A stretch of 64,000 bases of DNA from contig JACKBJ010000002.1 of the NCBI GenBank assembly GCA_020634625.1, positions 158,275-222,274 of the forward strand. Direction: 5' to 3'. A model generated the notes under the pieces. It was not told the DNA's origin and did not search any database. It saw only the letters and a list, made by a program, of their open reading frames with translations. This document shows positions 3,301 through 42,076 of the stretch, piece by piece; within the stretch, counting starts at the first letter, position 1, and the number at the start of each line of letters is the position of its first letter. The position numbers and the translations under genes were made by a program. The DNA comes from Caldilineae bacterium (lineage in GTDB: Bacteria > Chloroflexota > Anaerolineae > Epilineales > Epilineaceae).

Positions 3301-4421
3301 TGGCCAACCCGCCATCCGGCTACCGCAAGGCCGAGTCCCCGGCCGACCTGGCCGGCATCGCCAACGACATCGGCCTGACCCTGTCCGACCGACGCCTGTT
3401 CCAGTCCCTGGTCATCACCGACCGTGTGCCGATCAACATGCGCCTGCTTCCGGGCAGCATCAGCCCGCCGGCGACCCTCATCCCCGATCCCGACCCCGCC
3501 TCGAGCGCCCTCTTGCGCTGGGACCTCGGTCCCGTCGCCCTCGGTGCCGCGCCCCCCAGCCTGTCCTACCTCCTCGAGCCCTTGCAGTCCGGCCGCCACC
3601 CGACCAACGTCGAGGCCCTCGCCAGCTATACGGATGGCCTCGACTACGCTGGCCGGGCTCGTTTTCCCGTGCCCGAGGTCGAGGTCATCGGCGCCACCGA
3701 GACGCCTAGCCCCTCGCCTTCGCCCGAAGCCTCCGCGACGCCCCGCGATACGGGCACCTCGACGCCGACCGGGACGCTGCCGCCCTCGCCGACCCGACCC
3801 AGCGCCACCCCGCGACCGACCGGCCCGCCGCGGCCGATCCACCTGCCCATCCTCTTCCGCGAGCAATGCGTGCCCAAGGCGCGGCCGGTCGATGTGGCGC
3901 TGGTCATCGACACCTCCTCCTCGATGAACGGCGCCAAGCTCGCGGCCGCGCGATCGGCCGGGCGCAGCTTCGTGGCCCTGCTCGACCCGAGCCGCGATCG
4001 GGCCAGCATCGTCGGCTTCGACAACGAGGCCCGGCTGGCCCAGCCGCTGACCGGTGACCAGGCCGCCCTGGGCCGGGCCCTGGATGGGCTGGCGACGGCG
4101 GTGGGCACGCGAATCGATCTGGGCCTCTGGACGGCGCTGGGCGAGCTCACCGGCGCCAACCGTCGGGCCGAGGCCGACCGGGTCATCGTCCTGCTCACCG
4201 ACGGCCGGCCCCAGCTGGGCACCGAGCCGGCCATGCGGGCCGCCGCCCAGCTGGCCCGCGACGTGGGCGTGGCCACCTACGTCATCGGCCTCGGCGAGGA
4301 CGTGCTGCCCGAAGTCCTGCGCGAGATCGCCGGCGCCGAATCGCGCGTCTACCTGGCCCCGGACGGGGCCGCCCTCTCCGCCATCTACCGCGACATCGCC
4401 CGACTGATCCCCTGCCGCTAG
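357..4421 (+). CDS. Large secreted/surface protein with an N-terminal signal or TM segment, NHL beta-propeller repeats, a Cys-rich segment, two von Willebrand factor A domains and a Pro/Thr/Ser linker
   Basis: At least four NHL-type repeats are present (GNHRVSAW, GNRRVVALQ, EGHRILVFD, GNQRVLTWD). Two vWA-like blocks are visible (DVVLSIDQSCQMGGERLAAARAAGNALIDAL...VGFNDEA and DVALVIDTSSSMNGAKLAAARSAG...VIVLLTDGRPQ). A PT-rich linker reads TETPSPSPSPEASATPRDTGTSTPTGTLPPSPTRPSATPRP. The 1395-aa ORF on the opposite strand is low-complexity R/G/A translation and is taken as a shadow. Confidence 0.8.
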   Translation: MSSCMPRSPAGNPIQATRPRLGPSRTAILLAVGFALGGLLVLAAAAARARAVGPAAFDSSASDPTGLDAGLAGLAAAPAGLDDTPTDSAAPASLAQEPLPGALPERYALATSWPSDLPYAGVHQPEGLDIAEDGIILVAERGNHRVSAWGLNSGLKGQIGSLGAGEGQFDAPEDVAIVPGGSRIYVADTGNRRVVALQRGWAGFDLSLRWVAAWEDVGLPRGIAADRDGRVYVSDAEGHRILVFDAEGNRLAAWGGFGRAPGALDTPLGLSVEPGGRLHIADSGNQRVLTWDLDGNVISMLRLDNVGQPGGVPYDVGVDEKGDTYVSVERGVLRFRAATGYAETLSPLRLVERAGCRCYQCGGNTSPQCCPAEYAPAPASHEGTRRLAVHFEHGIFFSYAPELRFDDRIVALPRRGFDSAFPLASCATGPDWRKVYDPTRIDAGQDPAAAQVLDTSGLLRFYRQSGAWYDGRNIFRGGPGIDIAADPVEADYTYVLTGNQVQVSWRRCFLGCPPHPTEALDERQRQRRNDKTGDLEPDFRWWLTALASGAGKQWAVLDAGLQRVILRGPWRVQQPITGAFCDGAANCQLLPMAWLEAPLVAAVSLNRPSAPFRAFRDLAYDSRGNLRVLTADGEVQTFDARGRDAEPIQLAGLRGRALEALAAGFDENGVTLFTLSADGWAFKHDAAGRMLAAWELEAEAGPGRYRDLTVDGLGRVLIPDGDANRILVFDRLPTQPSEAPPDPRGEACRITTSKGATPGRLALGETTEVRLSLAADCGPAWDALDVVLSIDQSCQMGGERLAAARAAGNALIDALRVEADRLALVGFNDEADGARLLVPLTDDKQALREALASLSTECLPPIFYPERRYDARNAAGLRAGGEALFGPAGRPAAGKVLVLVSASSIDREQAERLFGRSLPGSLAAPVSDREHALWEAWRLWARGARIYSVGVGLPAQRLGMPAPPAPDLQSSQPPDEGLLAALANPPSGYRKAESPADLAGIANDIGLTLSDRRLFQSLVITDRVPINMRLLPGSISPPATLIPDPDPASSALLRWDLGPVALGAAPPSLSYLLEPLQSGRHPTNVEALASYTDGLDYAGRARFPVPEVEVIGATETPSPSPSPEASATPRDTGTSTPTGTLPPSPTRPSATPRPTGPPRPIHLPILFREQCVPKARPVDVALVIDTSSSMNGAKLAAARSAGRSFVALLDPSRDRASIVGFDNEARLAQPLTGDQAALGRALDGLATAVGTRIDLGLWTALGELTGANRRAEADRVIVLLTDGRPQLGTEPAMRAAAQLARDVGVATYVIGLGEDVLPEVLREIAGAESRVYLAPDGAALSAIYRDIARLIPCR

Positions 4422-9013: not shown

Positions 9014-9023
9014 GAGGCATCAG

Positions 9024-9096
<73 letters not shown>

Positions 9097-18767: not shown

Positions 18768-18922
18768 GGGCGCAATCCTAGGCCGGCGGGCCGATGGGTC
18801 AAGCCCCGGCTGCCGCCCGGCCGGGACCGATCGGGCGCGCGATTGACCGCCGGCCGTACGCGTTGCAGGATTGAGGCCCCCGCGCGCGCTGCTTCCGCGC
18901 GCGACCGAGCCAGGAGGTACCG

Positions 18923-19864
18923 GTGCACCATCCATCCGACCCGTCGTCCGGGCTCGCTCGCCGCCAGGGTCCCGCCGGCCGTCCAGGCCCGACCGAGCCC
19001 TCCGGTCCGCCCGGCCGCTTCGGCGCCCTTGGCCGGCTGACGTTGTTGGGGCTCCTGCTTCTGGCCGGCTGTCGCGGCGATCCGGCCGCCGCGCCGTTCG
19101 TCGATCTGGCCGACGCCGACTTCGAGGTCGGCGTGACCCCGCTGCCGCTGCGGGTCGAGGTCCTGGCCAGCCATCCGCACGATCCGTCGGCCTTCACCCA
19201 GGGCCTGATCGACTACGGCGGCAAGCTCTACGAGAGCACCGGGCTCAACGGCCGTTCCAGCCTGCGCCGGGTGGACATCGAGACTGGCGCCGTCGAGCTG
19301 CAGGTGCCGGTCGACGAGGCCTACTTCGCCGAGGGGCTGGAGCGGGTGGACCAGCGCCTGATCCAGCTGACCTGGCAGTCCGGCAAGGCCTTCGTCTACG
19401 ATCTGGACAGCTTCGAGCTGCTGGCCGAGCTCGACTACGCGACGGAGGGCTGGGGCCTGTGCCTGGCCGAGGCCGCCGGGCACCTGGTGATGAGCGACGG
19501 CAGCGACCAGCTCTACTTCCGCGACCCGGAGACCTTCGCGGAGCTGGGCCGGGTCGCGGTCACGCGGGCCGGCCAGCCGCAGACCATGCTCAACGAGCTG
19601 GAGTGCGTCGGCCAGGTGGTCTACGCCAACGTTTGGCAGACCGACGAGATCGTGGTCATCGACCCCGATACGGGCGCCATCGGAGCGGTCATCGACACCG
19701 CGGCCCCCGGCTCCGACCCGCTGTTGACGCCGGAGGAGCGCGCCTCGGCCGACGTCCTCAACGGCATCGTCTGGCTGGAGGACGCCGACCGCTTCCTGAT
19801 CACCGGCAAGCTCTGGCCGAGGCTCTTCGAGGTCGGATTCCAGCCGGCGGAGCCAGGCGGATGA
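18923..19864 (+). CDS. Glutaminyl-peptide cyclotransferase (plant/bacterial five-blade propeller type), lipoprotein
   Basis: The protein is collinear with Xanthomonas-type QC: SHPHDPSAFTQGL...YESTGLNGRSSLRRVDIETG...NELECVGQVVYANVWQTDEIVVIDPDTG...DVLNGIV...ITGKLWPRLFEV. The lipobox is LLLAGC. Confidence 0.85.
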   Translation: MHHPSDPSSGLARRQGPAGRPGPTEPSGPPGRFGALGRLTLLGLLLLAGCRGDPAAAPFVDLADADFEVGVTPLPLRVEVLASHPHDPSAFTQGLIDYGGKLYESTGLNGRSSLRRVDIETGAVELQVPVDEAYFAEGLERVDQRLIQLTWQSGKAFVYDLDSFELLAELDYATEGWGLCLAEAAGHLVMSDGSDQLYFRDPETFAELGRVAVTRAGQPQTMLNELECVGQVVYANVWQTDEIVVIDPDTGAIGAVIDTAAPGSDPLLTPEERASADVLNGIVWLEDADRFLITGKLWPRLFEVGFQPAEPGG

Positions 19865-21660
19865 GCCGGCACCGCTCGAGCCCTTCGGCCCCGCCCGCCG
19901 CCCGCCGCCCGCTCGTCGTGCCGAGCCGGCCCCGCCGACCCGCCGCGGCCCTGCTCGCCGGCCTGCAGGGCGGCCTGGCCGCGCTGGCCCTGCTGGCCGG
20001 GCCAGCGCCGCCGGCGACCCGCGCCCAGCCGGGGGTCGAGCGCCTGAAGCTGGAGCTGCTGGCCGAGCACCCGCACGACCCGCTGGCGCATACCCAAGGC
20101 CTGCTGTTCCACGATGGCCGGCTCTACGAGAGCGAGGGCAAGGACTACGCGCCCTTCGGCGCCGGCCAGCCCGACTACCGCTCCTCGCTGCGTCAGGTCG
20201 ACCCGAGCAGCGGCGAGGTCCTGCGCCGGGTCGACCGCAGCGACTACTGGGCCGAGGGCCTGGCACGGGTCGACAGGCGCCTGGTGCAGATCAGCTACCT
20301 GGCGCGCCGGGCCACCTTCTACGACCTCGACAGCTTCGCGGAGCTGGCTGGGGTCGACTACGAGGTCGAGGAGGGCTGGGGCCTCTGCCACGACGCGCCC
20401 CGTGATCGCCTGCTGATGAGCGACGGCTCGAGCCGGCTCTACCTGCGCGACCCGCGGAGCTTCGCGCCGCTCGGCAGCCTGACGGTGACCCTGGCGGGTC
20501 GCCCGCTGGCCAAGCTCAACGAGCTGGAGTGCGTCGGCGACCGCGTCTACGCCAACCTCTTCCCCGACATCGGGCGCCCCGACCTCTACGACACCATCGC
20601 GCGCATCGATGCCCGGACCGGGGTCGTCGACGGGCTGATCGACGCCGGCGGCCTGCTGAGCGCCGCCGAGATGGCCGAGTTCGGCGTGGCCGAGCTCAAC
20701 GGCATCGCGGCCGATCCGGAGCGCCAGGTCTTCTACCTCACCGGCAAGCTCTGGCCCAAGCTCTTCGAGGTGCGCCTGGTGCCCGACGATTCGCGCGGGA
20801 CGGTCACGCCCGAGCTCTCGCCCTCGCCGGAGCCCAGCGCCAGCCCCTCGAGCGGCCCCAGCGCCACGCCGACGGCCGCGCCCACCCGGCCCCCGGCGCC
20901 GCCCGAACGGCTGCGCGTGCAGGTGCTCGAGCGCCTGCCCCACGATTCGACCATCTACACCCAGGGCCTGCTGCTCCACGAAGGCATCCTCTACGAGACC
21001 TCGGGTCACCCGTCGGCGGCCACCGGCGGCCCGGTGCGGCTCTCCGCGCTGCGGGCGCTGGTGCCCGAGACGGGCGAGCAGCTGCGCATCACCGAGCTCG
21101 ACGACCGCTATTACGGCGAAGGCCTGGCCTTGCTGGCCGACCGGCTCTTCTGGATCACCTGGCAGGACGGCCTGGCCTTCGAGTTCGATCGCGACAGCTT
21201 CGAGCGCCTGGAGGTGCACAGCTATGCCGGCGAGGGCTGGGGCCTCTGCTCGGACGGCCACGACTTGTTCATGAGCGACGGCTCGGCCCGCATCACCCGC
21301 CGCGATCCCGAGGACTTCAGCGTCCTGGGTCAGGTCGAGGTGCGCGACATGGGCCAGCCGGTAGCCCGGCTCAACGAGCTCGAATGCGTGGACGACCAGG
21401 TCTACGCCAACGTCTGGAAGACCGACGAGATCCTGCGCATCGACCGCCGCAGCGGCAACGTGCTGGCTCGGATCGACGCCAGCGGCCTTCGGCCGGCCAG
21501 CGCCACCAACCGCGAGGCCGTGCTCAACGGCATCGCCTGGGATGCGGCCAGCCAGACCTTCCTGATCACCGGCAAGTGGTGGGACCTGATGTACCGCGTC
21601 CGCTTCGTGCCCGCGTCCGCCGCGCCGATCTATCTGCCGCTGCTGCGGCAGGGTGGCTGA
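19861..21660 (+). CDS. Tandem double glutaminyl cyclase: two QC propeller domains joined by a Pro/Ser linker
   Basis: Both QC domains are complete (HPHDPLAHTQGLL...NELECVGDRVYANLF...GKLWPKLFEV and LPHDSTIYTQGLL...NELECVDDQVYANVW...GKWWDLMYRV). The ATG overlaps the upstream stop (ATGA). Confidence 0.85.
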   Translation: MSRHRSSPSAPPAARRPLVVPSRPRRPAAALLAGLQGGLAALALLAGPAPPATRAQPGVERLKLELLAEHPHDPLAHTQGLLFHDGRLYESEGKDYAPFGAGQPDYRSSLRQVDPSSGEVLRRVDRSDYWAEGLARVDRRLVQISYLARRATFYDLDSFAELAGVDYEVEEGWGLCHDAPRDRLLMSDGSSRLYLRDPRSFAPLGSLTVTLAGRPLAKLNELECVGDRVYANLFPDIGRPDLYDTIARIDARTGVVDGLIDAGGLLSAAEMAEFGVAELNGIAADPERQVFYLTGKLWPKLFEVRLVPDDSRGTVTPELSPSPEPSASPSSGPSATPTAAPTRPPAPPERLRVQVLERLPHDSTIYTQGLLLHEGILYETSGHPSAATGGPVRLSALRALVPETGEQLRITELDDRYYGEGLALLADRLFWITWQDGLAFEFDRDSFERLEVHSYAGEGWGLCSDGHDLFMSDGSARITRRDPEDFSVLGQVEVRDMGQPVARLNELECVDDQVYANVWKTDEILRIDRRSGNVLARIDASGLRPASATNREAVLNGIAWDAASQTFLITGKWWDLMYRVRFVPASAAPIYLPLLRQGG

Positions 21661-23149: not shown

Positions 23150-23534
23150 GAGCCTGTCCGAGCAGAGACCTCGGTGGGCAAGCGCGTATCGAGGTCGTCT
23201 GTGTCCGACTACGTGAACACAGTCGCCTGGAAGCGTCCGGTTCTGGTGGCCGAGCTCGGGTGACTCCGCCTGCGAGCCTATCTCGCCGGCAGCCCGATAT
23301 GAAGTTCCCCGGTGGACTCGTGCTGACAGGCGATCCGGCCTGGCCGTGGAGGAAGGCTTGCGGTAAGCAGCGCCCTGCCGTCTCCGAAGCGGGTTGTCCG
23401 AAGTCTTCCAGCCCTACCGGTCTCTACTTTCCGTCGAAAGACGACAGGGGCACCCGCTTGGACACCCCTGTTCATTCACGTTCATTCACGTTCAGCGCAC
23501 GCTCGCGCCCGAGGCCAGCCGACGTGGACGGAGG

Positions 23535-24758
23535 CTAGGACTCCACCACCGCCATCGCCGCCTCGCGTAGCGCAGCTGCCCGGTCGGTCCGCTCCCAGGG
23601 CAGGTCCAGGTCGTCGCGGCCGAAGTGCCCGTAGGCCGCCGTCTGGCGGAAGATCGGCCGGCGCAGCTTCAGGTCGCGGATGATGGCGCCCGGCCGCAGG
23701 TCGAAGTGCGCCTGCACCAGCTCGCGGATGCGCTCGGGGTCGATCGTCTCGGTGCCGAAGGTGTCGATGTTCAGCGAGAGCGGCTCGGCCACGCCGATGG
23801 CGTAGGCCAGCTGGATCTCGACCCGCGTGCAGAGCCCGGCCGCGACCAGGTTCTTGGCCACCCAGCGCGCCGCGTAGGCGCCCGAGCGGTCGACCTTGGT
23901 GGCGTCCTTGCCGCTGAAGGCCCCGCCGCCGTGGCTGGCCATGCCGCCATAGGTGTCGACGATGATCTTGCGGCCGGTCAGGCCGCAGTCGCCCTGAGGG
24001 CCGCCGATGACGAAGCGCCCGGTCGGGTTGGTCAGGATGCGCGTCTCGGCGTCCATCAGCTCGGCCGGCATGACCGGCTTGATCACGTGCTCGATCAGGT
24101 CGCGGCGAATCTGCTCCTGGCTCGCGTCCGGGTCGTGCTGGGTCGAGATGAGCACGGTCGTGACGCGCTTGGGCTTGCCGTAGGCGTACTCGACCGAGAC
24201 CTGGCTCTTGCCGTCCGGGCGCAGGTACTTCAGGGTCGAGTTCTTGCGCACGTAGGCCAGCCGGCGGGTCAGCTGGTGCGCCAGGTGGATCGGCAGCGGC
24301 ATCAGCTCGTCGGTCTCGTCGCAGGCGAAGCCGATCATCATGCCCTGGTCGCCGGCGCCGATGGCCTCGACCTCGGCGTCGCTCATCGCGCCTTCCTTGT
24401 GCTCCAGCGCCTCGTCGACGCCCATCGCGATGTCGGCCGACTGCTTGTTGATGGCCGTGATCACGCCGCAGGTGTCGGCTGCGATGCCGTAGGCGGCGTC
24501 GGTATAGCCCGTGGCGCGGATGGCGTCGCGGATCACCTGCGGGTAGTCGACCGTCGCGCTGGTGGTGATCTCGCCGGTGACCAGGGCCAGGCCGGTGGTC
24601 ACCACCGTCTCGCAGGCCACCCGGCCGCGCGGGTCCTGCTCCAGAATGGCGTCCAGGATGGCGTCCGAGATCTGGTCGCAGAGCTTGTCCGGGTGGCCCT
24701 CGGTCACCGATTCGCTGGTGAACAGGAATCGGGGCGAGGACATGAACGAGGTCGTCAT
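23535..24758 (-). CDS. metK: S-adenosylmethionine synthetase
   Basis: [34 protein letters not shown] and the full MAT signature. An alternative start is the ATG 15 nt downstream (MSSPRF). Confidence 0.95.
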
Positions 24759-24760
24759 CG

Positions 24761-25768
24761 TCAGGCTCCTTGATGCCGGCCGGCATGGCGGCCATGCTGG
24801 TGCGCGCGGTTCAGGGCGTCCACGAGCGCGTCGGGGATGTCGCCGAAGTGCTCGGCATAGCGCTTGGTGAAGCTGGGGATGGTGTAGCGGTGGGCCTGGG
24901 TCCCCAGCGATTCCAGGGCGTAGGTGGCGGCCAGCGCGCCGGCGCGGCCGGCCACCGGCCAGGGCAGACCGTGCAGCAGCCCGAACATGATGCCCGAGCG
25001 GTAGGCGTCGCCGATGCCGGTGGGATCGACCTGGCGCGTGGCGGGCACGGCCGGGATGACGTGCGTCTCACCGCCGGCGCGGATCACCGAGCCCTTCTCG
25101 CCGTGGGTGATCACCACCACGTCGGTCATGCCGACGATGGCATCCTCGGTCAGGCCGGTCTTCTCGTGCACCAGCTCGAACTCGTACTCGTTGGCCACGA
25201 AGCAGGTGCAGCCCTCGATGCCGGCCACCAGCGCCTCGCCCGACAGCCGCACGATCTGCTGGCTGGGGTCGTAGACGTAGGGGATCTCGAGGTCCCGGCA
25301 CTCCTGGACGTACTTGACCATCGCCTCGGGCGCGTTGGGCGCGATCACGGCCAGCTCGATCGAGGCCGCGTCGAGGTCGTGGAAGGACAGCTGCGTGGCC
25401 GAACCCATCGCGCCGACGTAGAAGCTGGCGATCTGGCGGTTCTTGCGGTCGGTCGAGACGAAGAAGCTCGAGGTGCTCTCGTCCGGCAGGACCCGGGTCA
25501 GGGACATGTCCACGCCGTGCTGCTCGAGGCGCTCGTGGTCGTAGGCGAAGTCGGCGCCGACGGTGGCCATGACGTGCGGGCATTCGCCGAGCAGGGCCAG
25601 GTTGTAGGCGATGTTGGCCGCGCAGCCGCCCGGCTCGCGACGCAGGCTGTCGACCAGGAAGCTGACCGAGAGCACGTCGATCTTGTCGGGCAGGATGTGC
25701 TCGCTGAAATCGCCCGGAAAGGACATGATGTAGTCGTAGGCGACCGATCCGGTGATGATGATGCGCAT
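24761..25768 (-). CDS. PfkB-family carbohydrate/nucleoside kinase (adenosine kinase, or 5-deoxyribose / methylthioribose-type kinase)
   Basis: Ribokinase fold motifs are present: the GG motif ([16 protein letters not shown]) and the anion-hole [12 protein letters not shown]. It is sandwiched between mtnA and metK in one operon. Confidence 0.75.
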
Positions 25769-25792: not shown

Positions 25793-26878
25793 CTAGGACG
25801 CGGGCACCGGGCTGGCGGCGGCCTCGACCGCCGCGCGCAGGCCGGCTTCGAAGGGTGGGCGCAGCACGCCTGCCTCGGTCACGATGGCGCTGATGTAGCG
25901 GGCCGGCGTCAGGTCGAAGGCCGGGTTGGCGGCCGTGACCCCGGCCGGCGGGATGCGCCGACCGGCGATCTCGGTGACCTCGGTCGGGTCGCGCAGCTCG
26001 ATCGGGATTTCGGCGCCGCTGGGGCAGCCCAGGTCGATGGTCGAGCTCGGGGCGACGACGTACACCGGCACGCCGTTCTCGCGGGCGACCACGGCCAGCG
26101 GATAGGTGCCGACCTTGTTGGCCACGTCGCCGTTGGCCGCGATCCGATCGGCGCCGACCAGCACGGCGTCGACCTCGCCCCGCTGCAGATAGTAGCCGGC
26201 CGCTCCGTCGACGATCAGGGTCTGCGGCACGCCCAGCCGCGCCAGCTCCCAGGTGGTCAGCCGCGCGCCCTGCAAGCGCGGCCGCGTCTCGTCCACCAGG
26301 ACCCGGATTCGCTTGCCCTGCTCGTGCGCGGCCCGGATCACGCCCAGGGCGGTGCCGTAGTCGACCGTGGCCAGCGCGCCGGTGTTGCAGTGGTGGATCA
26401 CGGTGCAGCGCTCGGGCAGGAGCGCCGCGCCATGGGCGCCCATGCGCCGGTTGGTGGCCAGGTCCTCGTCGGCGATGCGCTCGGCCTCGGCCAGCGCCAG
26501 CGTGCGCAGGGCGGTCGGCTCGGTCTCGCCGGCCGCGATCTCGGCGTCGAGTCGACCGAGCACGCGGCGCAGGGCCCAGGCCAGGTTGGAGGCGGTCGGC
26601 CGGGCCGCCAGGAGCGTCTCGGCGTCGATGGCCAGATCGGCGCGCAGGCCGGCGGCCGTCGACGCCGTCGACCCCTGGGCACCGAGGGCCAGGCCGTAGG
26701 CCGCCGTGGCGCCGATGGCCGGGGCGCCGCGCACGGCCATGTCGCGGATGGCCTCGGCCAGACTGGCCACGTCGTCCAGGACCAGCGTCGACTCCCGCTC
26801 GGGGAGCAGGCGCTGGTCGATCATGCAGACGCGCGCGTCGCGCCAATAGACGGTTCGTGTCGGGCTCATCGCCTTCAT
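25793..26878 (-). CDS. mtnA: Methylthioribose-1-phosphate isomerase family (MtnA/DrdI, eIF-2B-like)
   Basis: [19 protein letters not shown] and [15 protein letters not shown]. The start was set to the ATG (MKAMSPT) because the TTG at 26911 would overlap the riboswitch terminator. Confidence 0.85.
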
Positions 26879-26900
26879 CGCATGCCTGCCCTGCCGTGGC

Positions 26901-26941
26901 ACCAAAAACAAACGACGTCTCGCCGCAGGCGCAGAGACGTC
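26901..26941 (-). terminator. Intrinsic terminator forming the riboswitch expression platform
   Basis: The minus strand reads GACGUCUC-ugcgccugcggc-GAGACGUC followed by GUUUGUUUUUGG. Confidence 0.7.
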
Positions 26942-26950
26942 GGGGAGAAC

Positions 26951-27062
26951 CTCTCATCTCTCGATCCGCGCTGTCGCGCGAGCCGGCGGACTTGGCACCG
27001 TGGCCTTGGCCTGGTTGCCGGGGTTTCGTCGGGCCGTTCCCTCCACCCCTCTCGATAAGATC
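26951..27062 (-). promoter_or_regulatory. SAM-I (S-box) riboswitch aptamer
   Basis: The minus strand reads UCUUAUCGAGAGGGGUGGAGGGAACGGCCCGACGAAACCCCGGCAACCAGGCC...GGUGCCAAGUCCGCC...GAUCGAGAGAUGAGAGG. This matches the S-box consensus blocks (UCUUAUCaAGAG, GGAGGGA, GGCCCgAUGAA, GCAACC, GGUGCnAAnUCC, closing AGAUGAGAG). The P1 helix is UCUUAUC/GAUGAGA. Confidence 0.85.
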
Positions 27063-27181
27063 ACGGACTGTGAAATTGTCGGCCAGATTGTACAACAGGC
27101 CCGCCGCCCGACAAAAAGCCGGGCTCGCCGCGCCCAGCGCGCGGGCCGACGCGGATGATTGTCGCAAGGCCGGGCCGGCTG

Positions 27182-34329: not shown

Positions 34330-36306
34330 TCAGCGACGCCAGGCCTGTCCGAGCAGCGGCACGAAGACCCGCTGGCGCGGTTCGACCACCCGGTAGCGGG
34401 CCACGGCCGGCCGGCCGCCGGCCAGCCAGACCGTGATGTCGCGCTTGTCGGGATCCAGGCGGAGGGCGCGCACCCGCCGCGGCTCGATCGAGGCGCCGAG
34501 CGGCGACAGGATGTGGTACTCCCAGGTCAGGCCGTTCCAGTGCAGCAGGCCGTTGGCGTCCACCAGCACCCAGGCCGTCCCCGGCGCCGGCGAGTCGACG
34601 TCCAGCAGCCCGATGGCTTCGGGGATCGGCAGCTCGACCGGCGTCCAGGTCTGCCCATCGAAGCGAAGCAGCCGATCGGCCTCGGTGCCGCTCCGCGCCC
34701 GCGCGATGGCCCAGCCCTCGTTGGCCGTGCTGACCACGAGGCGCGGCACCCAGTAGCCCTCGCCGATGGCCTGGGCGGTCCAGAGGCCGTCGGCCAGATG
34801 CAGGATCTCACCCTCGGCGCCGAACCAGCCCTCGGGCTCGACTCCGCCCCGGAGCATCGAGAAGGCGCCAAAGCGGGCGCTGAACGGCGCCCCTTCCACC
34901 TGCTGCCAGTCGCTGCCGTCCCAGCGGGCCACGACGTTGCTGCCCGTGAGCCAGGCCTCCTGCTCGGAGATGGCCTGCACCGCGTACAGATCCCAGGTCT
35001 TTTCGACCGGCCAGGCGCGCCAGGCCGCGCCGTCCCAGCGCCAGGCCAGGGCTTCGGGCGGGCTGCCCGGCGCGCTGCCGACCGCCCAGCCTTCGCGCTC
35101 GCTGGCCAGGTCGAGGTCGGTCACCCGCGTGCCAGCGGGCATGGCCTGGGCCAGCCGCCAAGGGCCGTCGCTGGCACCGACCATGCCGGCGCTGACGGCC
35201 AGGCCGCCGGCCCAGCCGAAGTCATCCGAAACGGCATCGAGCGCTTCGAGGGGATTGGCCTGCGGCCACAGGGATTCGGCGGCCTGGCCGTCTCGCACGC
35301 GCAGCACCTCGCCCTGCGTGCCCAGGGCGAAGAAGCCGTCTTGGCCCGGCGCCAGGCCGCTGACGACCGAGCCGGTCGGAAGCTCCACCGGCGACCAGTC
35401 GAGCGCGGCGTAGCGATAGACCTTTTCGCCGACCAGGACGTAGGCGGTCGATCCGCGCCAGACCGCGTCATGGTAGACGAGATCGTCCGGACCGGCCTCG
35501 CGCCAGACGCCGTCGGCGAGCTCCCAGGCGCCGGCGCCGAGGAAGAGCCCCCGGCCCTCGGCCGAGAATGCGATGGCCGCCGGGCGTCGAATCCGCGGTG
35601 CGGTGGCGTCGATCTGCCAGCCCGTGCCATCGTTGACCAGGACCTCGCCGCTGGCCGCCATGGCGTAGGCTCGCCCGCCTCCAGCGCTGGCCACCGCGCG
35701 GATATCGACCAGACGCAGCGCGTCGGGCACCGCCGTCGGTCGCCAGATGCCGCCGTCCCAGTAGAGGATGGTGCCGCGCGTGCCGGCCGCCCAGCCGTCG
35801 GCGGGCCCGGCGAGGTCGAGGCTGGACAGGCTGCTGCCGGTCGGTGACGGGTAGCGCAGCCAGCTGGATCCGATCAGGCGAAAGATCGCTCCGCCGTCGC
35901 CGACCGCGAAGCCGGTCGAACCGACGATCGCGATGCGCGAGAGGCTGACGTCGTTGACGATCTGAGCGCTGCGCCAGACCCCGGCCTCCCAGCGCACGAA
36001 GCTGGTCTGGTCCCGAGTGTCGCGGCCAGCCACGAAGGCGGAGCGATCGAGACCCCAGGCCGAATCGGCAGCCACGAGCGCCAGATCGTCGACCTGGCGA
36101 AAGCCACCGTAGAGCAGCTCCCAGCTCGGAACCCAATCGCCGCGTGGCAGCATGGCCTGGGCCCGGGCCACCGGGCCGCCCGAGCCTCCGAGGATCAAGG
36201 CCGCGGCGAGCGCGGTGGCCAGCCGCCCGGCCCGACCAGGCTGGGATCGACGCAGGGGTGTGAGCATTCGGAGCCTCCCGTGACGCGTGCCGAAGCGCCA
36301 GCGCAT
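34330..36306 (-). CDS. Secreted BNR/Ycf48-like beta-propeller repeat protein
   Basis: Signal peptide present. Blades of the form GWAxG...W(D/N)G..W recur many times (GWAAGTRGTILYWDGGIWRP, EAWLTGSNVVARWDGSDWQQV, GTAWVLVDANGLLHWNGLTWEY). Confidence 0.55.
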   Translation of the reverse strand: MRWRFGTRHGRLRMLTPLRRSQPGRAGRLATALAAALILGGSGGPVARAQAMLPRGDWVPSWELLYGGFRQVDDLALVAADSAWGLDRSAFVAGRDTRDQTSFVRWEAGVWRSAQIVNDVSLSRIAIVGSTGFAVGDGGAIFRLIGSSWLRYPSPTGSSLSSLDLAGPADGWAAGTRGTILYWDGGIWRPTAVPDALRLVDIRAVASAGGGRAYAMAASGEVLVNDGTGWQIDATAPRIRRPAAIAFSAEGRGLFLGAGAWELADGVWREAGPDDLVYHDAVWRGSTAYVLVGEKVYRYAALDWSPVELPTGSVVSGLAPGQDGFFALGTQGEVLRVRDGQAAESLWPQANPLEALDAVSDDFGWAGGLAVSAGMVGASDGPWRLAQAMPAGTRVTDLDLASEREGWAVGSAPGSPPEALAWRWDGAAWRAWPVEKTWDLYAVQAISEQEAWLTGSNVVARWDGSDWQQVEGAPFSARFGAFSMLRGGVEPEGWFGAEGEILHLADGLWTAQAIGEGYWVPRLVVSTANEGWAIARARSGTEADRLLRFDGQTWTPVELPIPEAIGLLDVDSPAPGTAWVLVDANGLLHWNGLTWEYHILSPLGASIEPRRVRALRLDPDKRDITVWLAGGRPAVARYRVVEPRQRVFVPLLGQAWRR

Positions 36307-36418
36307 GATGCGGAAGCAGGGGTCGTCGAGTCAAGCCGAGCCCGAGCGTCCGCGCGGCCGATGGCGCTCCGGCATCGGCCGGCGTCGCAAATCGGTCGGA
36401 TCGAGCATAGAACATTTG

Positions 36419-36427
36419 TGCTATACT
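36419..36427 (+). promoter_or_regulatory. Extended -10 (TGcTATACT) for the M23 peptidase transcript
   Basis: catttgTGcTATACTccgcac, about 80 nt upstream of an aaaggag RBS. Confidence 0.4.
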
Positions 36428-36506
36428 CCGCACTCGAGAGGCTCGGTCCCGGGCTCCCCCCGGGGTTCGGCCGAAGCGGCCGACGACGAAAGGAGATGAC
36501 GAAGCC

Positions 36507-38408
36507 ATGCTCGGGCGAGCGACACGACACGATTCCCACCGAAGCGCGATCCGCCGCGAGGTTGCCGGATCGGGCACGGGTCGGCGTATCTCGACGGTCT
36601 GGCTGCTGGTCGGCTTGCTGGTCAGCCTGCTGATCCTGTCCCAGCTGGGTCGGGGCGGGCGCCTCGAAGCGCGCGCACGCGCGGTCCCGGCACCGCTCGG
36701 GTCGCCGGCCGAGCCGCTCGCCCCAGGGCTCGCGGACTTCGTCCGCGGCCCGGAGCAGCTGCTCCAGGATGCGGAGCTCGTCTTCGGCGCTGGCGCCGGA
36801 CGCTTCGACACGGCGGCCTTCCTGGCAGGCCGGCCCGAGCTGCTGCCCGGGCCGCCGGCCGCGACGGCCGCCGCCATCGACGGGGTGGCGCGGCGGCACG
36901 CCATCGATCCGCGCCTGCTGCTCAGCCTGCTGAGCCTGGATCCGGCTGGGGAAGGCGTCGACACCGCCGACCGCGCGGCGCGCATCGCCGTCTGGCTGGC
37001 CGACGGCTACTACGGGCTCAAGCTCCGCGGCGAGGCCGATCTGATCTTCGCCGACGGCAGCCGCCAGCGAGGACCGGTCGAGGGCGGCGCCGCGCACTTC
37101 GCCGTCGCGCGCTATCTGGCCCGTCAGGGGACGGCCGTCGAGCAGCCAGCGCGACAGGCCCGTTTCGCCGAGCGCTACGCCGAGCTCTTCGGTGCTGCGC
37201 CCCGTCTGGAGGCACCGGTGCCGGATGGGTTGCGGCAGCCGCCCCTCCTGCTGCCCTGGGCCGAAGGGCAGCGCTGGCACTACACCGGCGGTCCACATGG
37301 CGCCTGGGGCGTGGCCTCGGCCTGGGGTGCGGTCGACTTCGCCCCGCCCTCGCTCGTCGGCTGCCGGGCCGCTCCGGAATGGACCCTCGCCGCGGCGCCC
37401 GGACGGGTCACCTGGTCGGACACGGGTCTGGTGCTGGTCGACCTGGACGGCGATGGCAACGAAGGCACGGGCTGGGTGCTGGCCTACCTGCACATGGCCA
37501 GCGAGGGCCGGGTCGCGGTCGGCCGATGGCTGGAGGCGGGCGAGCCGCTGGGGCACCCCTCCTGCGAGGGCGGTGTGGCCGACGGCGCGCATCTCCACTT
37601 CGCGCGGCGCTACAACGGGGAGTGGCTCCCGGCCGCCGGTGGGCCGGTGCCGATGGAGCTCTCCGGCTGGCGCTTCAGCTCCCTGGGCGGGGAGTATGAC
37701 GGCAGCATGCAGCATCCCGAGCAGGGCGAGCGGATGGCCGTTACCAGCCGCCGCGGCGGCGCATCCGACCTGGTCAGCGATAACGGGCCGGCGCGCCGTG
37801 AGGCCCTCGCCAGCGCCTGGGCGGCGCTGTCCGCCGGCGCGCCGGCCCGACTCGAAGACGCCGACTCGGGGCTGTCGCGCGCGCCCGAACCGATGACCGA
37901 AGCGGCGCGTCCCGCCGCGCCGGCGACTGCGGCCGCTGCCATGTCGGCGGCCGGCGGCGCCACGGGCGCGGCCACGATCGCCGTCCGAATCGCCCTCGAA
38001 GGCCGGGATGACGCGTCCACGCCGGTCGTGCTCGGCCTGGTCGGCGCCGCCGCGCCGCCACTGGTGTTGATGGCGCGCACCAACGCGGCCGGTGAGACCG
38101 GCGCCATCGCGCTTCCGGACGAGGCCCGCGGGATCTACGATCTGACCCTACGAGCGCCGGGCTTCGCGCCCGCCTTCGTGCTGGGTGTGACGATCGGCGA
38201 GCCGGGCCTCGAGATCGACCTCAGCGCCGGCGGACGGCTGCGCCTGGCTGCCGGCGAGCTCAACGGCGATGACGTGATCGACGGGCGTGACCTCGGCGCC
38301 TGGCTGACGCATTGGCGCGCCGGGCGTCCACTCGCCGATCTGGACGGCGATGGCTGGGCCGGACCGGGTGATCTCTGGCGGGCCATGAACGCCGCCGCGG
38401 GACGCTGA
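36507..38408 (+). CDS. M23-family (LytM-like) metallopeptidase with a C-terminal dockerin-type Ca-binding module
   Basis: The M23 core is GGPHGAWG...WGAVDFAP...GWVLAYLHM...HPSCEGGVADGAHLHF. The C-terminal dockerin-like repeats are LNGDDVIDGRDLGAWL and DLDGDGWAGPGDLWRAM. Confidence 0.75.
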   Translation: MLGRATRHDSHRSAIRREVAGSGTGRRISTVWLLVGLLVSLLILSQLGRGGRLEARARAVPAPLGSPAEPLAPGLADFVRGPEQLLQDAELVFGAGAGRFDTAAFLAGRPELLPGPPAATAAAIDGVARRHAIDPRLLLSLLSLDPAGEGVDTADRAARIAVWLADGYYGLKLRGEADLIFADGSRQRGPVEGGAAHFAVARYLARQGTAVEQPARQARFAERYAELFGAAPRLEAPVPDGLRQPPLLLPWAEGQRWHYTGGPHGAWGVASAWGAVDFAPPSLVGCRAAPEWTLAAAPGRVTWSDTGLVLVDLDGDGNEGTGWVLAYLHMASEGRVAVGRWLEAGEPLGHPSCEGGVADGAHLHFARRYNGEWLPAAGGPVPMELSGWRFSSLGGEYDGSMQHPEQGERMAVTSRRGGASDLVSDNGPARREALASAWAALSAGAPARLEDADSGLSRAPEPMTEAARPAAPATAAAAMSAAGGATGAATIAVRIALEGRDDASTPVVLGLVGAAAPPLVLMARTNAAGETGAIALPDEARGIYDLTLRAPGFAPAFVLGVTIGEPGLEIDLSAGGRLRLAAGELNGDDVIDGRDLGAWLTHWRAGRPLADLDGDGWAGPGDLWRAMNAAAGR

Positions 38409-38471
38409 GGGGCTTCGGCCCGCCATCTGCGCTCGTCTCGGCGTCCCGTCGGTGCAGGATGGCGACCCAGG

Positions 38472-38480
38472 TGCTACAAT
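38472..38480 (+). promoter_or_regulatory. Extended -10 (TGcTACAAT) 9 nt before the ATG; implies a leaderless mRNA
   Basis: gTGcTACAATcggcgcctcATG. Confidence 0.4.
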
Positions 38481-38489
38481 CGGCGCCTC

Positions 38490-40757
38490 ATGTCACCCCT
38501 GCTAGCCCTCGCATCTCCGGTCTCGCTGGCGCTCGCCGCCCTTGCGAGCCTCGTTCCCGCCTCGAGGCAGCGCTTCCGACCGCGACTGCTGCTGCCGCTG
38601 CTGGCGCTCGTCGCGCTCGGCGCCGCGGTGACGCAGCTGGCCATGCTCTGGGACGGCACGCGGGCGAGCCTGGGCGTGACGCTCTCGCCCTGGACCGCGC
38701 GCCTGTTCACCGTCGGGCCGCGTCTCGAGGTCGATGCCTTGGCGGCCTACGGCGTCCTCCTGGTCTGCCTGGCGAGCCTGGTGGCGCTGCTGCATGGCCT
38801 GCGGGATGAGTCCCTGGCGATCGAGTCGCTGGCCGGCCCCTTGGCGGTGGCCAGCAGCGCCACGCTGTTCTGTGCCGCCACGCGTTCGCCCCTCGGGCTG
38901 GTGTCGAGCTGGCTCTTGATGGACCTGGCGCTCTTCTTCGGCGCCGGCGTTCGCCGGCGTGGCCTCCTGGCTGGCCAGCTCGGACTGCTCTTCATCCTGG
39001 CCGGCCTCATGGGCCTGGCCGACCCGAGCCTGGTCGGCGGCGAGCTTGGCAGCTGGCCGCGCCTCTGGCTGCTGGCCGCGGCCGGCATCCGGATGGGGAC
39101 CTATCCCTTCTCCTGGGCCCTGCCGCGGACTCGGATGGACGGTGTCTGGCGGGCCGGCATCCTGCGTCTCGGACCCGCGGTCGCCGGTGCCACGTTGGCC
39201 ATCCGGGCTGGCGCGAGCCTCGGCTCGGGCAACGGGGTCGATCCGCTGTCGCTGCTGCCCGGCGCGCTCGCCATGCTCTTCGGCGGCCTCCTGGCCTGGC
39301 TCTCGGCGGAGCGCGGCACCGCGCTCGACTGGGCGTTCACCGCCGGAGCGGGCCTGCTGCTGACCGCTGCGGCCCTCGGAAGTCCGGTCGGCACGACGGT
39401 CGCGGCCCTGCTGCTGGCGGACCTGGTGCTCGGCCGCCTGGCGCAATACCTGGCCGAGGATACCCCCGGTCAAGCGCCGCGCCTTGCCTGGGGACTGTCG
39501 GCAGCCAGCCTGGCCGGCCTGCCGCCCTTGCTGGGCTTCTTCGCGCGCGTGCTGCTCTACCGGGCCCTGCTCGATGGCGGACATGGTTGGGTGCTGCTCA
39601 CGGCGGCCCTGTCGACGGCGCTGACGGCGGCCCCCTTCGGTCGGCTGCCCGCCCTGTCTCCCAGGACCGAGGGCCCGAGCGCCTGGCAGCTGCTGCCGCT
39701 CGGCCCGGCGCTTCCGCTGGTCCTGCTCGGTCTGCTGTCCGGCTGGCTGCCGTTCGCCCTGTCCGGCGCCGAGTGGTCGCCGATGGCGGGGAGCGCGCGC
39801 GCCTTGCTCGGCCTGGATTGGCGCCTGATCTCGGCCTTGCTGGTGCCGCCGCTGCTGGGCTTCGCGATTCACCGCAGCGGATGGGGCAGCCGGCGGCCGC
39901 CCGTCGATGCGCCCCGCCGGCGTGTCAGCCGATTGCTGCGCCTGACCGAGCTCTTCGACGGCATGCGGACGGCCTTGATCCAGACGGGCCGGATGATCCA
40001 TCGCAGCCTCGGGCTGGTCGAGGGGCATCGCACCATGGCGTTGACCCTGCTGGCGGCCGTGGGCGTGGGCCTGACGGTCCTGGCCGGCGCCGGTCCCCTG
40101 CCCGATCCGGTCGGACCGGGTCTCGACGGGGTGGGCATGATCCTCTGGGGCGTGGCGACGCTCATCGCGGTGGTCAACCTGCTCGTCACCCGGCGCCTGG
40201 TCACCCTGATCATCCTGTGGGTCAGCTACCTGCTCGTCGCGGCGGTGCTGCTGGTCAGCGGCGGCACGCCGACGCCGGCGGCGCTGGTCGTCAGCGCCCT
40301 GGTCAAGGGACTGGCCGGCATCGTCGTCGTGGCGATCCTGTCCATCAGCGTGGTTCAGCTCGGTGCGGACGGCGCGGCGGGGGCGGCGCGTCGCGCCCCG
40401 CTGTTGGCGGCCGAGCCGAGCGATCGCAACGAGACCCCCTTGCGCCTCCTGGCCCTGTGCATCGCCGTGCTCCTCACCGGCAGCCTGCATGCCACCACCC
40501 TGCAGCCGACGCTGCCGGACATGGTCCTGCGCCCGGCCCTGACCCTGATCGTCGGCGGGGTCTTGACCGCCATCTTCGCGCGCAGCCCGCTGCGGCTCGC
40601 CGTGTCGGTGCTGGTCGCCCTGTGCGGCTTCGAGCTGATCTATGCTCGGCTCGATCCGGGGCTGTTCATGACCGGTAGCCTGGCCGCGTTCCACATCCTC
40701 TTCGCCATCCTGGCCTCGCTCTATGTCGGGCTGGCCTTGGACCCCGAAACGGCATGA
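38490..40757 (+). CDS. Highly divergent NuoL/M/N-like (PF00361, complex I/Mrp antiporter-like) polytopic membrane protein, 755 aa
   Basis: About 20 predicted TM helices. A degenerate core (GTYPFSWALP...AGATLAIRAG) aligns to FPLHTWLPDA...AATMVTAGVYLLIR, and AYSSIAHMG corresponds to AFTAGAGLLLTAAALG. The antisense 730-aa ORF is a shadow. Confidence 0.5.
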   Translation: MSPLLALASPVSLALAALASLVPASRQRFRPRLLLPLLALVALGAAVTQLAMLWDGTRASLGVTLSPWTARLFTVGPRLEVDALAAYGVLLVCLASLVALLHGLRDESLAIESLAGPLAVASSATLFCAATRSPLGLVSSWLLMDLALFFGAGVRRRGLLAGQLGLLFILAGLMGLADPSLVGGELGSWPRLWLLAAAGIRMGTYPFSWALPRTRMDGVWRAGILRLGPAVAGATLAIRAGASLGSGNGVDPLSLLPGALAMLFGGLLAWLSAERGTALDWAFTAGAGLLLTAAALGSPVGTTVAALLLADLVLGRLAQYLAEDTPGQAPRLAWGLSAASLAGLPPLLGFFARVLLYRALLDGGHGWVLLTAALSTALTAAPFGRLPALSPRTEGPSAWQLLPLGPALPLVLLGLLSGWLPFALSGAEWSPMAGSARALLGLDWRLISALLVPPLLGFAIHRSGWGSRRPPVDAPRRRVSRLLRLTELFDGMRTALIQTGRMIHRSLGLVEGHRTMALTLLAAVGVGLTVLAGAGPLPDPVGPGLDGVGMILWGVATLIAVVNLLVTRRLVTLIILWVSYLLVAAVLLVSGGTPTPAALVVSALVKGLAGIVVVAILSISVVQLGADGAAGAARRAPLLAAEPSDRNETPLRLLALCIAVLLTGSLHATTLQPTLPDMVLRPALTLIVGGVLTAIFARSPLRLAVSVLVALCGFELIYARLDPGLFMTGSLAAFHILFAILASLYVGLALDPETA

Positions 40758-42076
40758 TCGCCACCAGCCTTCTCCTGGCGCTGGCCCTGCTGCCCCTGTG
40801 TGCGGCGCTGCTCTGCATCTGGTTGGCGCCGCGCGATCCCGAGAAGTCCCTGAAGCTTTCCTATGGGGCGGCGCTGCTGCTCGTGCTGCTGGTCTCGCTC
40901 TCGGTGGTGGATGCCCGGATCGGGCTCTTCGCCGGGCGTGCCTTGGAGCTGCAGCCCATCGCCCAGCTGGGCGTTCAGCTGCTGGGTCTGGCGATGTTGG
41001 GCTTCCTGCTCTCGCTCAATCGGGCGCAGGCCCAGTGGCTGGAGGCCTGGCTGCCCCTGGCCTGGCTGAGCCTCTTCGGCCTGATCCTGTCGCTGCTCAT
41101 CTCCTCGCTGCCGGTCGCCCTGCTCATCTTCCTCGGCGCGGCCCTGCTCTGGGCCTTCGCGCTGCCGCCCTCGGCGCGGGCGAGCTCGGCCGGGGTGACC
41201 ATGCGCTTCGCGGCGCTGATCTCGCTGACGCTGCCCCTGCTCCTGATCGCCTTCCGGCTTGCCGAGGAGCGCGCCGCAAACGACTCGGTCGAGCGGCTGG
41301 TCCTGGCCTTGGCCGTGCCGGCCTTCGGGCTCATCCTGGGCCTGATCCCCCTGCATGCCTGGACCCTGACCCTCGCCGGCGGCACGCCGCGCGCGATGGT
41401 GTTCGGCGTCATCTCCCTGGTGCAGACCACGGGCTTCATGCTCCTCCTGCGCACATTGGCCGAGTACCCCTGGGCGACCGAAGTGGCCCGTGGCACGCTG
41501 GTGGCGGCCGGCGCCCTGTCCGCCCTCGTCGGCGGTTGGATGGCGCTCTCGGCCCGCCGCGACGATCCCGACGACTGGCTGGTCTACGCCGCCATCGCCA
41601 ACAGCGGCATGCTCCTGGCCGGGCTCGGCACCCAATCCGAGGTGGCCGGGGCCGGCGTGGCGCTGCTGCTCTTCGCCCGCGTCCTGGCGCTGGTCTTGCT
41701 CGACCTGGCGCCCCGGGTGCCGCGGCTGCTGCGGCGACTGGCCTATGCGGCCGGTACGCTCGCCCTGGCGGGAACGCCCGGCCTGGCCGGTTTCCCCGGC
41801 CTGTGGCTGATCCTGCTCAAGCTGCAGGCGGGTCAGAACGGGGTGGCGAAGCCGGCCATCCTGGCCGGCAGCGGACTGCTCTTCGCGACGGCCGTGCGCC
41901 GCTGGCGGGCCGACACGGTCATCGAGGATGCGACCTGGATCGACGTGCCCGACCCGGGCGCGCGCCGAGCCGCGCTGATCCTGCTGGCGCTGCTCGTGTT
42001 GCTGGGCATCGCGCCCCAGATCGTCGCGCCCGCCTTCGGCATCGCCCTGCGCGACATCTTCTTCTCGCTTCCTTGA
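40754..42076 (+). CDS. Divergent NuoM/N-like (PF00361) membrane protein, 440 aa
   Basis: LIPLHAWTLTLAGGTPRAMVFGVISLVQTTGFMLLLR aligns with FPLHxWLPDAhxGAPTPVSALLHAATMVTAGVYLLIR. AYSSIAHMG corresponds to YAAIANSGMLLAGLG. The start overlaps the upstream stop by 4 bp. Confidence 0.6.
   Translation: MIATSLLLALALLPLCAALLCIWLAPRDPEKSLKLSYGAALLLVLLVSLSVVDARIGLFAGRALELQPIAQLGVQLLGLAMLGFLLSLNRAQAQWLEAWLPLAWLSLFGLILSLLISSLPVALLIFLGAALLWAFALPPSARASSAGVTMRFAALISLTLPLLLIAFRLAEERAANDSVERLVLALAVPAFGLILGLIPLHAWTLTLAGGTPRAMVFGVISLVQTTGFMLLLRTLAEYPWATEVARGTLVAAGALSALVGGWMALSARRDDPDDWLVYAAIANSGMLLAGLGTQSEVAGAGVALLLFARVLALVLLDLAPRVPRLLRRLAYAAGTLALAGTPGLAGFPGLWLILLKLQAGQNGVAKPAILAGSGLLFATAVRRWRADTVIEDATWIDVPDPGARRAALILLALLVLLGIAPQIVAPAFGIALRDIFFSLP

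Follow-up and report, generated by a model that had tools for sequence, protein, structure and literature searches.

The window (the whole stretch of DNA analyzed, 64,000 nucleotides in length) comes from an uncultured member of the Caldilineae (Chloroflexota) and has a GC content of 72.4%. Its minus strand carries three closely spaced genes, preceded by a leader that contains a SAM-I (S-box) riboswitch aptamer. The three genes, and the hairpin that follows them, are listed here from 5’ to 3’ on that strand.

25793 to 26878, minus strand: mtnA, S-methyl-5-thioribose-1-phosphate isomerase
24761 to 25768, minus strand: PfkB-family kinase gene
23535 to 24758, minus strand: metK, S-adenosylmethionine synthetase
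23444 to 23471, minus strand: hairpin, possible end of the operon

The mtnA product matches TIGR00512 with 407.9 bits (cut-off 279), NF004326 with 438 bits, and PF01008. The kinase matches Pfam PF00294 with 128 bits. The metK product matches TIGR01034 with 582.1 bits (cut-off 309.4), and all three S-AdoMet_synt Pfam domains (N-terminal, central, and C-terminal) were found in it. The spacing between mtnA and the kinase gene is 24 nucleotides, and the start of metK overlaps the stop of the kinase gene by 4 nucleotides. Due to this tight packing, a single transcript is likely. An mtnA-PfkB kinase-metK operon had been proposed in the initial annotation of this DNA, and it is borne out by the TIGR00512, PF00294, and TIGR01034 matches and by the packing of the genes.

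Upstream of the leader, an MscS-like channel gene diverges from position 27200. The next gene after metK encodes a TauD-family dioxygenase and is convergent. The hairpin listed above lies in the 385-nucleotide gap before this gene, approximately 64 nucleotides past the metK stop. It has a perfect 12-base-pair stem with ∆G of −17.4 kcal/mol and a weak U-tail (CGUCUUUCG). It was not flagged by the generic terminator scan and is tentatively labeled here as the operon end; it may terminate transcription from both directions. None of mtnP, mtnN, mtnK, mtnB, mtnD, and ahcY was identified among the 26 predicted proteins spanning 14.8 to 50 kb of the window. In an ENA contig of the same species (k141_864843, locus L082, positions 2908 to 4131), metK is called as two fragments of 213 and 178 amino acids. 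Because the window and the NCBI contig carry the intact gene, this split is probably an assembly frameshift.

The aptamer and its helices are as follows. Their anatomy is the Rfam consensus structure mapped onto the 111-nucleotide sequence.

26951 to 27061, minus strand: SAM-I (S-box) aptamer, 111 nucleotides, a minimal form without P3 or P4 extensions
27054 to 27060, minus strand: P1 5’ strand, UCUUAUC, seven canonical pairs with 26952 to 26958
27020 to 27049, minus strand: P2 helix with a K-turn-type GA/GA internal loop, from alignment to the RF00162 consensus
26994 to 27019, minus strand: P3 helix, GGCAACC and GGUGCC pocket strands with a short apical stem
26959 to 26990, minus strand: P4 helix, 9 base pairs with one C-A mismatch, a GACA loop, and a closing U-A pair
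26952 to 26958, minus strand: P1 3’ strand, GAUGAGA, common to P1 and the antiterminator

A minus-strand S-box aptamer had been called from the letters alone, and an RF00162 search had been proposed as a check. When the whole window was compared with Rfam 15 using cmscan, RF00162 (SAM) was matched at 27061 to 26951 on the minus strand with 77.3 bits (E = 2e-16). The gathering score of this family is 44.4 bits, which is exceeded by 33 bits. The match spans positions 1 to 108 of the 108-position model and is not truncated. It is far above chance. The only other Rfam match in the 64-kb window is a single tRNA. This sole tRNA of the window is a tRNA-Ala (anticodon CGC) at 9023 to 9096 on the minus strand.

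All four helices, P1 to P4, form around the four-way junction in the window aptamer. P1 pairs UCUUAUC with GAUGAGA at 27060 to 27054 and 26958 to 26952, as had been described, and P2, P3, and P4 can each be folded. P2 is composed of a 5-pair P2a and a 3-pair P2b with the internal loop GGA / GACGAA between them. The GGA (positions 18 to 20) and GACGAA (positions 32 to 37) align to the consensus gGA and uaUGAA at the sequence level only, and G19, A20, G35, and A36 are invariant in eight relatives. By its sequence, this loop corresponds to the K-turn of the SAM-I family. The P2 terminal loop AACGG (27038 to 27034) supplies the bases for the pseudoknot. Three pairs between the CGG of this loop and the CCG of J3/4 can form in the window (C26-G75, G27-C74, and G28-C73).

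In the J1/2 AGA, the P3 GGCAACC/GGUGCC strands, and the A-U/U-A step of P1, the window agrees with the Rfam consensus, and the clade alignment described below shows no variation at these sites. These are presumably, from structural knowledge, the nucleotides that contact SAM. As judged from sequence, the element carries every defining feature of SAM-I that can be tested at that level. SAM-IV (RF00634) and the SAM-I/IV variant (RF01725) were considered as identities and ruled out because the element has P4, the GA/GA loop, and the SAM-I pseudoknot. Where matches of clan CL00012 overlap, RF00162 is the match retained.

Whole-leader folding energy was dropped as a test, as it did not single out the element. 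The leader has a GC content of 67% and folds no better than shuffled sequence (z = 0.20), and its unconstrained minimum-energy fold does not draw the native P1. The z-score is uninformative here because shuffles with 67% GC fold equally well, and because the native aptamer needs tertiary and ligand contacts.

Downstream of the aptamer lies the predicted expression platform. Its parts are listed with the promoter-like site that precedes the aptamer.

27087 to 27114, minus strand: promoter-like site, −35 TTGTCG, 16-nucleotide spacer, −10 TACAAT, 9 of 12 consensus matches
26933 to 26961, minus strand: antiterminator helix, AGAGAUG (26961 to 26955) paired with CGUCUCU (26939 to 26933)
26902 to 26942, minus strand: intrinsic terminator, 9-base-pair stem CGACGUCUC / GAGACGUCG, followed by UUUGUUUUUGG (26912 to 26902)

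The core arms of the terminator are GACGUCUC at 26941 to 26934 and GAGACGUC at 26921 to 26914. An extra C-G pair (26942 with 26913) lengthens the stem to 9 base pairs, 26942 to 26934 with 26921 to 26913. The sequence from 26913 to 26902 on the minus strand is GUUUGUUUUUGG. Direct folding gives a GC-rich hairpin with ∆G of −17.0 kcal/mol; the generic terminator scan gave only the 6-base-pair inner part, so the full stem is taken from direct folding. The U-tract is broken by G (UUUGUUUUUGG). An intrinsic terminator before the ATG had been part of the initial annotation, and the 9-base-pair hairpin (−17 kcal/mol) with UUUGUUUUUGG was recovered at the same place.

The antiterminator was absent from that description. 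It overlaps both the P1 3’ strand and the terminator 5’ arm, and its formation excludes both P1 and the terminator. Because the P1 3’ strand is common to P1 and the antiterminator, it is the switching sequence. In a nascent RNA that ends before the terminator 3’ arm, the antiterminator is the minimum-energy fold at −62.1 kcal/mol, compared with −54.4 kcal/mol when P1 is enforced. In the full leader, P1 plus terminator has ∆G of −69.1 kcal/mol and the antiterminator −67.2 kcal/mol. The full-length ON and OFF states are thus nearly equal, at 1.9 kcal/mol apart. The antiterminator duplex itself has ∆G of −11.6 kcal/mol against a shuffle mean of −6.9, and 5% of shuffled arms are as good. As evidence that the P1 3’ strand complements the terminator 5’ arm, this shuffle statistic is only suggestive and not decisive. 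In the folding model, alternation of the P1 3’ strand between P1 and a terminator-excluding antiterminator is present as a predicted platform. The computed energies fit classic S-box logic, in which the antiterminator wins without ligand and a ligand-stabilized P1 permits the terminator.

The promoter-like site is the sole one of its kind between 22000 and 28000, where shuffles average 0.3. This candidate promoter would probably set the transcription start near 27080, approximately 19 nucleotides before P1. A terminator-like hairpin was also observed at 27118 to 27138 on the minus strand, with a 7-base-pair stem (six GC) followed by TTTTTGTCGG. It overlaps the predicted −35 hexamer. As the neighboring MscS-like gene diverges on the plus strand, no minus-strand gene lies upstream that it could terminate, and it may be a chance match.

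The start codon of mtnA lies downstream of the terminator. The TTG that opens the mechanically called ORF (26911 to 26909) is the first three bases of the U-tract, and because of this it cannot be the mtnA start if the terminator works. In-frame ATGs are located at 26878 and 26869. The ATG at 26883 is out of frame and was ruled out as a start. An AGG (26886 to 26884) lies 6 nucleotides upstream of ATG 26878, and an AAGG lies merely 2 nucleotides upstream of ATG 26869. MtnA proteins of relatives begin MRT[VIL]xW; this start aligns with residues T7 to W12 of the window protein, counted from ATG 26878. The NCBI assembly calls a 358-amino-acid MtnA from ATG 26869 and the ENA assembly a 361-amino-acid MtnA from ATG 26878. 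The mtnA start is one of these two ATGs, and not TTG 26911. The initial annotation had held that the terminator forces re-annotation of this start. A start at the TTG within the U-tract is indeed untenable, but the correction applies solely to the mechanical ORF list, as the public calls are already at ATG 26869 or 26878.

Taken as a whole, the element is very probably a canonical SAM-I riboswitch that acts as a transcriptional OFF switch of the mtnA-PfkB kinase-metK operon in this Caldilineae bacterium. In this proposal SAM binding, the termination event itself, the promoter, and the kinase substrate are parts that we infer from sequence. Transcription would probably start near 27080. At low SAM, the P1 3’ strand (within AGAGAUG, 26961 to 26955) would pair with CGUCUCU (26939 to 26933). 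This antiterminator would block the terminator stem, and polymerase would read into mtnA, the kinase gene, and metK. At high SAM, the ligand would be bound by the four-way-junction aptamer (27061 to 26951) and P1 would be locked. CGUCUCU would then be freed for the 9-base-pair terminator hairpin (26942 to 26913), and transcription would halt in the U-tract (26912 to 26902) before the mtnA start codon. The predicted outcome of such SAM-dependent attenuation is feedback of SAM on its own synthesis by MetK and on the recycling of its by-products. MtnA would handle the methylthioadenosine-derived ribose, and the kinase probably the adenosine released from S-adenosylhomocysteine.

Related leaders were collected from 80 mtnA loci of other species, obtained in a scan in which each GTDB species was represented by one genome. 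Of the 19 closest loci, 7 have an RF00162 match by the Rfam model immediately before mtnA. A clade model (R1) was built from these matches, with apical P3 insertions cut out of its seeds; searches were run on the unedited loci. This model scores the window aptamer at 96.5 bits. With it, the aptamer is found immediately before mtnA in 12 of the 80 loci, all of them Chloroflexota. Roughly 37 of the mtnA loci belong to Chloroflexota, so that about 25 of these are without the aptamer. The distribution is patchy: three close species-level relatives (L001, L004, and L006) do not have the element. No aptamer was identified upstream of mtnA in the Acidobacteriota, cyanobacterial, or proteobacterial loci among the 80.

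Each of the 12 related leaders has its own GC-rich hairpin and U-tract, 29 to 49 nucleotides after P1, with ∆G values of −7.5 to −16.9 kcal/mol. Because the sequences differ among relatives, conservation is at the level of design. The P1 3’ strand is clearly complementary to the terminator 5’ arm in about 6 of 13 leaders; for 7 of 13 the complementarity is not significant.

These hairpins bear on the possibility of a working SAM sensor that regulates mainly at translation, or at both levels, by masking the mtnA ribosome-binding site. Translational platforms are known from some SAM-I riboswitches outside Firmicutes, which gives this reading a precedent, and one minimum-energy fold of the extended leader pairs the region after P1 loosely with sequence near the start codon. 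Nevertheless, translational control is very unlikely here. The candidate Shine-Dalgarno sequence (AGG, 26886 to 26884) and ATGs 26878 and 26869 are at least 16 nucleotides past the U-tract and lie outside both the terminator and the antiterminator, and a strong hairpin with a U-tract is present in the window and in all 12 relatives.

In the leaders of three Caldilineaceae loci (L002, L003, and L005), approximately 40 to 75 nucleotides upstream of mtnA, the terminator 5’ arm CCCCUCUGG complements, by eye, the J1/2-P2 strand CCAGAGNGGGG and not the P1 3’ strand. This sequence pattern suggests that the antiterminator is wired differently in these three loci.

Base pairing was counted on nine relatives that aligned unsplit; split matches, which come from leaders whose P3 insertion exceeds 100 nucleotides, were left out. 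Standard pairs occupy 97.3% of pair cells in the nine relatives, compared with 40 to 49% when the partners are slid by 1 to 3 columns. Seven pairs have changes on both sides, five in P4 and two in P2a. None of 500 shuffles reaches the observed pairing and covariation values, which are to be read with the caveat that the alignment was fitted to the model and this favors structure. Compensatory changes among relatives occur in 5 of the 6 modeled P4 pairs. All six proximal P3 pairs are invariant. The pseudoknot cells are paired in 91.7% of cases across the nine relatives, compared with 8 to 69% when slid; covariation is uninformative for the pseudoknot because its bases hardly vary.

The sequence evidence weighs against a relic or a specificity variant, that is, an aptamer that does not bind SAM, or binds a related ligand, with the hairpin acting as a constitutive attenuator or pause site. 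In its favor are the A-G outermost model pair of P1 in the window and a C-A pair in P4. This reading is nonetheless highly improbable. The J1/2 AGA, the P2 GA/GA loop, GGCAACC/GGUGCC, and the AU/UA step of P1 are all intact, the RF00162 score is 33 bits over threshold, and the helices covary, indicating ongoing selection. It is hardly to be expected that, besides its cis control, the terminated leader (approximately 180 nucleotides) has a second role as a small RNA regulating other genes in trans, like SreA and SreB, which derive from SAM riboswitches in Listeria; apart from this precedent and the stable terminated transcript predicted at high SAM, nothing from the window points to it, and such a role does not compete with transcriptional attenuation as the main mechanism.

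Several related Chloroflexota SAM-I aptamers contain apical P3 insertions of approximately 70 to 115 nucleotides, which roughly double the length of the aptamer. The long aptamers with P3 insertions are listed by locus and position.

L014, 1704 to 1912
L012, 3753 to 3944
L002, 3724 to 3948
L003, 3729 to 3946
L005, 243 to 462
L037, 3734 to 3928

The P3 insertion of L014 is composed of tandem AAAUUAG-like units facing CCAACUU-like units.

The gene content behind the leader also differs among relatives. Locus L007 (5059 to 8675) has the order mtnA-PfkB-ahcY-metK behind the same riboswitch. Loci L076 (6100 to 9059) and L079 have the order mtnA-X-PfkB-metK with a gap of approximately 1.4 kb before metK, and the gap gene was confirmed as ahcY in L076. 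In relatives, ahcY is thus found between the PfkB kinase gene and metK, the two genes that overlap by 4 nucleotides in the window.

The substrate of the kinase can be approached from its matches and its neighbors. Among solved structures, the kinase is closest to the nucleoside kinase 3b1n of Burkholderia thailandensis (9e-71) and the adenosine kinase 2pkf of Mycobacterium tuberculosis, both aligned over the full length; 2pkf and 4o1g each reach 2e-62 across residues 1 to 313. It shares the PfkB fold with 3b1n and with M. tuberculosis Rv2202c (2pkf), but it scores below the cut-off of every NCBIfam equivalog. The best of these is the nucleoside kinase NF041164, with 80 bits against a cut-off of 450. 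Its position next to mtnA is a Chloroflexota feature, unlike Rv2202c and 3b1n. Many homologs of the kinase are labeled ‘adenosine kinase’ by JGI, and it is 100% identical to a protein of the Caldilineae bacterium MAG GCA_020434045.1.

From these matches, the kinase is most likely an adenosine or nucleoside kinase. Its gene adjoins ahcY in relatives, and because adenosine is the AhcY co-product, adenosine kinase is the most economical reading. Both this neighborhood and the JGI label are circumstantial evidence.

A pairing of ribose-1,5-bisphosphate isomerase with a PfkB ribose-1-phosphate kinase, known from the archaeal pentose-bisphosphate pathway, was considered for the two adjacent genes and rejected. 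The ribose-1,5-bisphosphate isomerase model gives 222.6 against a cut-off of 314.1, whereas the MtnA models pass. Both ribose-1-phosphate kinase models are far below their cut-offs, which removes that identity for the kinase.

It is unlikely that the kinase instead phosphorylates 5-methylthioribose (or 5-deoxyribose), having taken the place of the unrelated MtnK in Chloroflexota and supplying MtnA directly. Some room is left for this reading because mtnA and a PfkB gene are adjacent in at least 17 Chloroflexota loci, because no equivalog claims the kinase, and because no mtnK, mtnP, or mtnN was found among the proteins predicted in 14.8 to 50 kb of the window. If it were true, the operon would be a lineage-specific, SAM-sensed salvage module around a new PfkB-family enzyme activity.

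Two further regions of the window are noted in passing. Four consecutive large predicted genes (658, 633, 755, and 440 amino acids) occupy 34330 to 42076 and have a coding-like GC3 of 0.86 to 0.93; none of the four has a Pfam match at E <= 1e-5. A long ORF at 18871 to 21660 on the plus strand contains two tandem glutamine cyclotransferase (PF05096) domains. Its first approximately 300 residues resemble out-of-frame, Arg/Pro-rich sequence, and because of this resemblance its true start is probably further downstream.

With regard to significance, this Caldilineae genome is predicted to use a standard S-box attenuator to control both the synthesis of SAM and the recycling of its by-products. The mtnA start is fixed downstream of the terminator. 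Intrinsic terminators serve as predicted riboswitch platforms in a 72% GC Chloroflexota lineage.

S-box control of metK and methionine-salvage genes is textbook knowledge for Firmicutes, and the closest points of comparison are the SAM-I leaders of Bacillus subtilis metK, yitJ, and mtnKA and the Thermoanaerobacter tengcongensis metF aptamer. The window element has the same P1 to P4 junction, P2 K-turn-type loop, pseudoknot, and pocket strands. As in these systems, the P1 3’ strand is common to an antiterminator that is followed by an intrinsic terminator, and the element is located upstream of SAM synthetase and methionine-salvage genes. It differs in that its host is a 72% GC member of the Chloroflexota and not a Firmicute, and in that the aptamer is a minimal 111 nucleotides. 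It also differs in operon content. B. subtilis metK and mtnKA carry separate S-box leaders, whereas a single leader serves the combined mtnA-PfkB kinase-metK operon in the window.

The SAM-IV (RF00634) family and the SAM-I/IV variant (RF01725) of clan CL00012 have a similar ligand-pocket core and are also common in high-GC bacteria. Neither has a K-turn or the P4 position of SAM-I, and their 3’ pseudoknot hairpin is different.

The gene order mtnA-kinase-metK behind one S-box leader was not found in the literature searched. RF00162 regulons in Chloroflexi have been described from five cultured genomes (RegPrecise), with ‘Methionine & SAM recycling’ as a class of regulated genes (Sun et al. 2013, PMC3766115). 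The window element belongs to the same RNA family, phylum, and functional gene class as those regulons, and the main text of that paper does not mention the order mtnA-kinase-metK. The element is a real and ordinary member of the well-known SAM-I family and is, as such, already known. The placement of mtnA, the kinase gene, and metK behind one leader is a minor variation in operon content and not a new kind of element.
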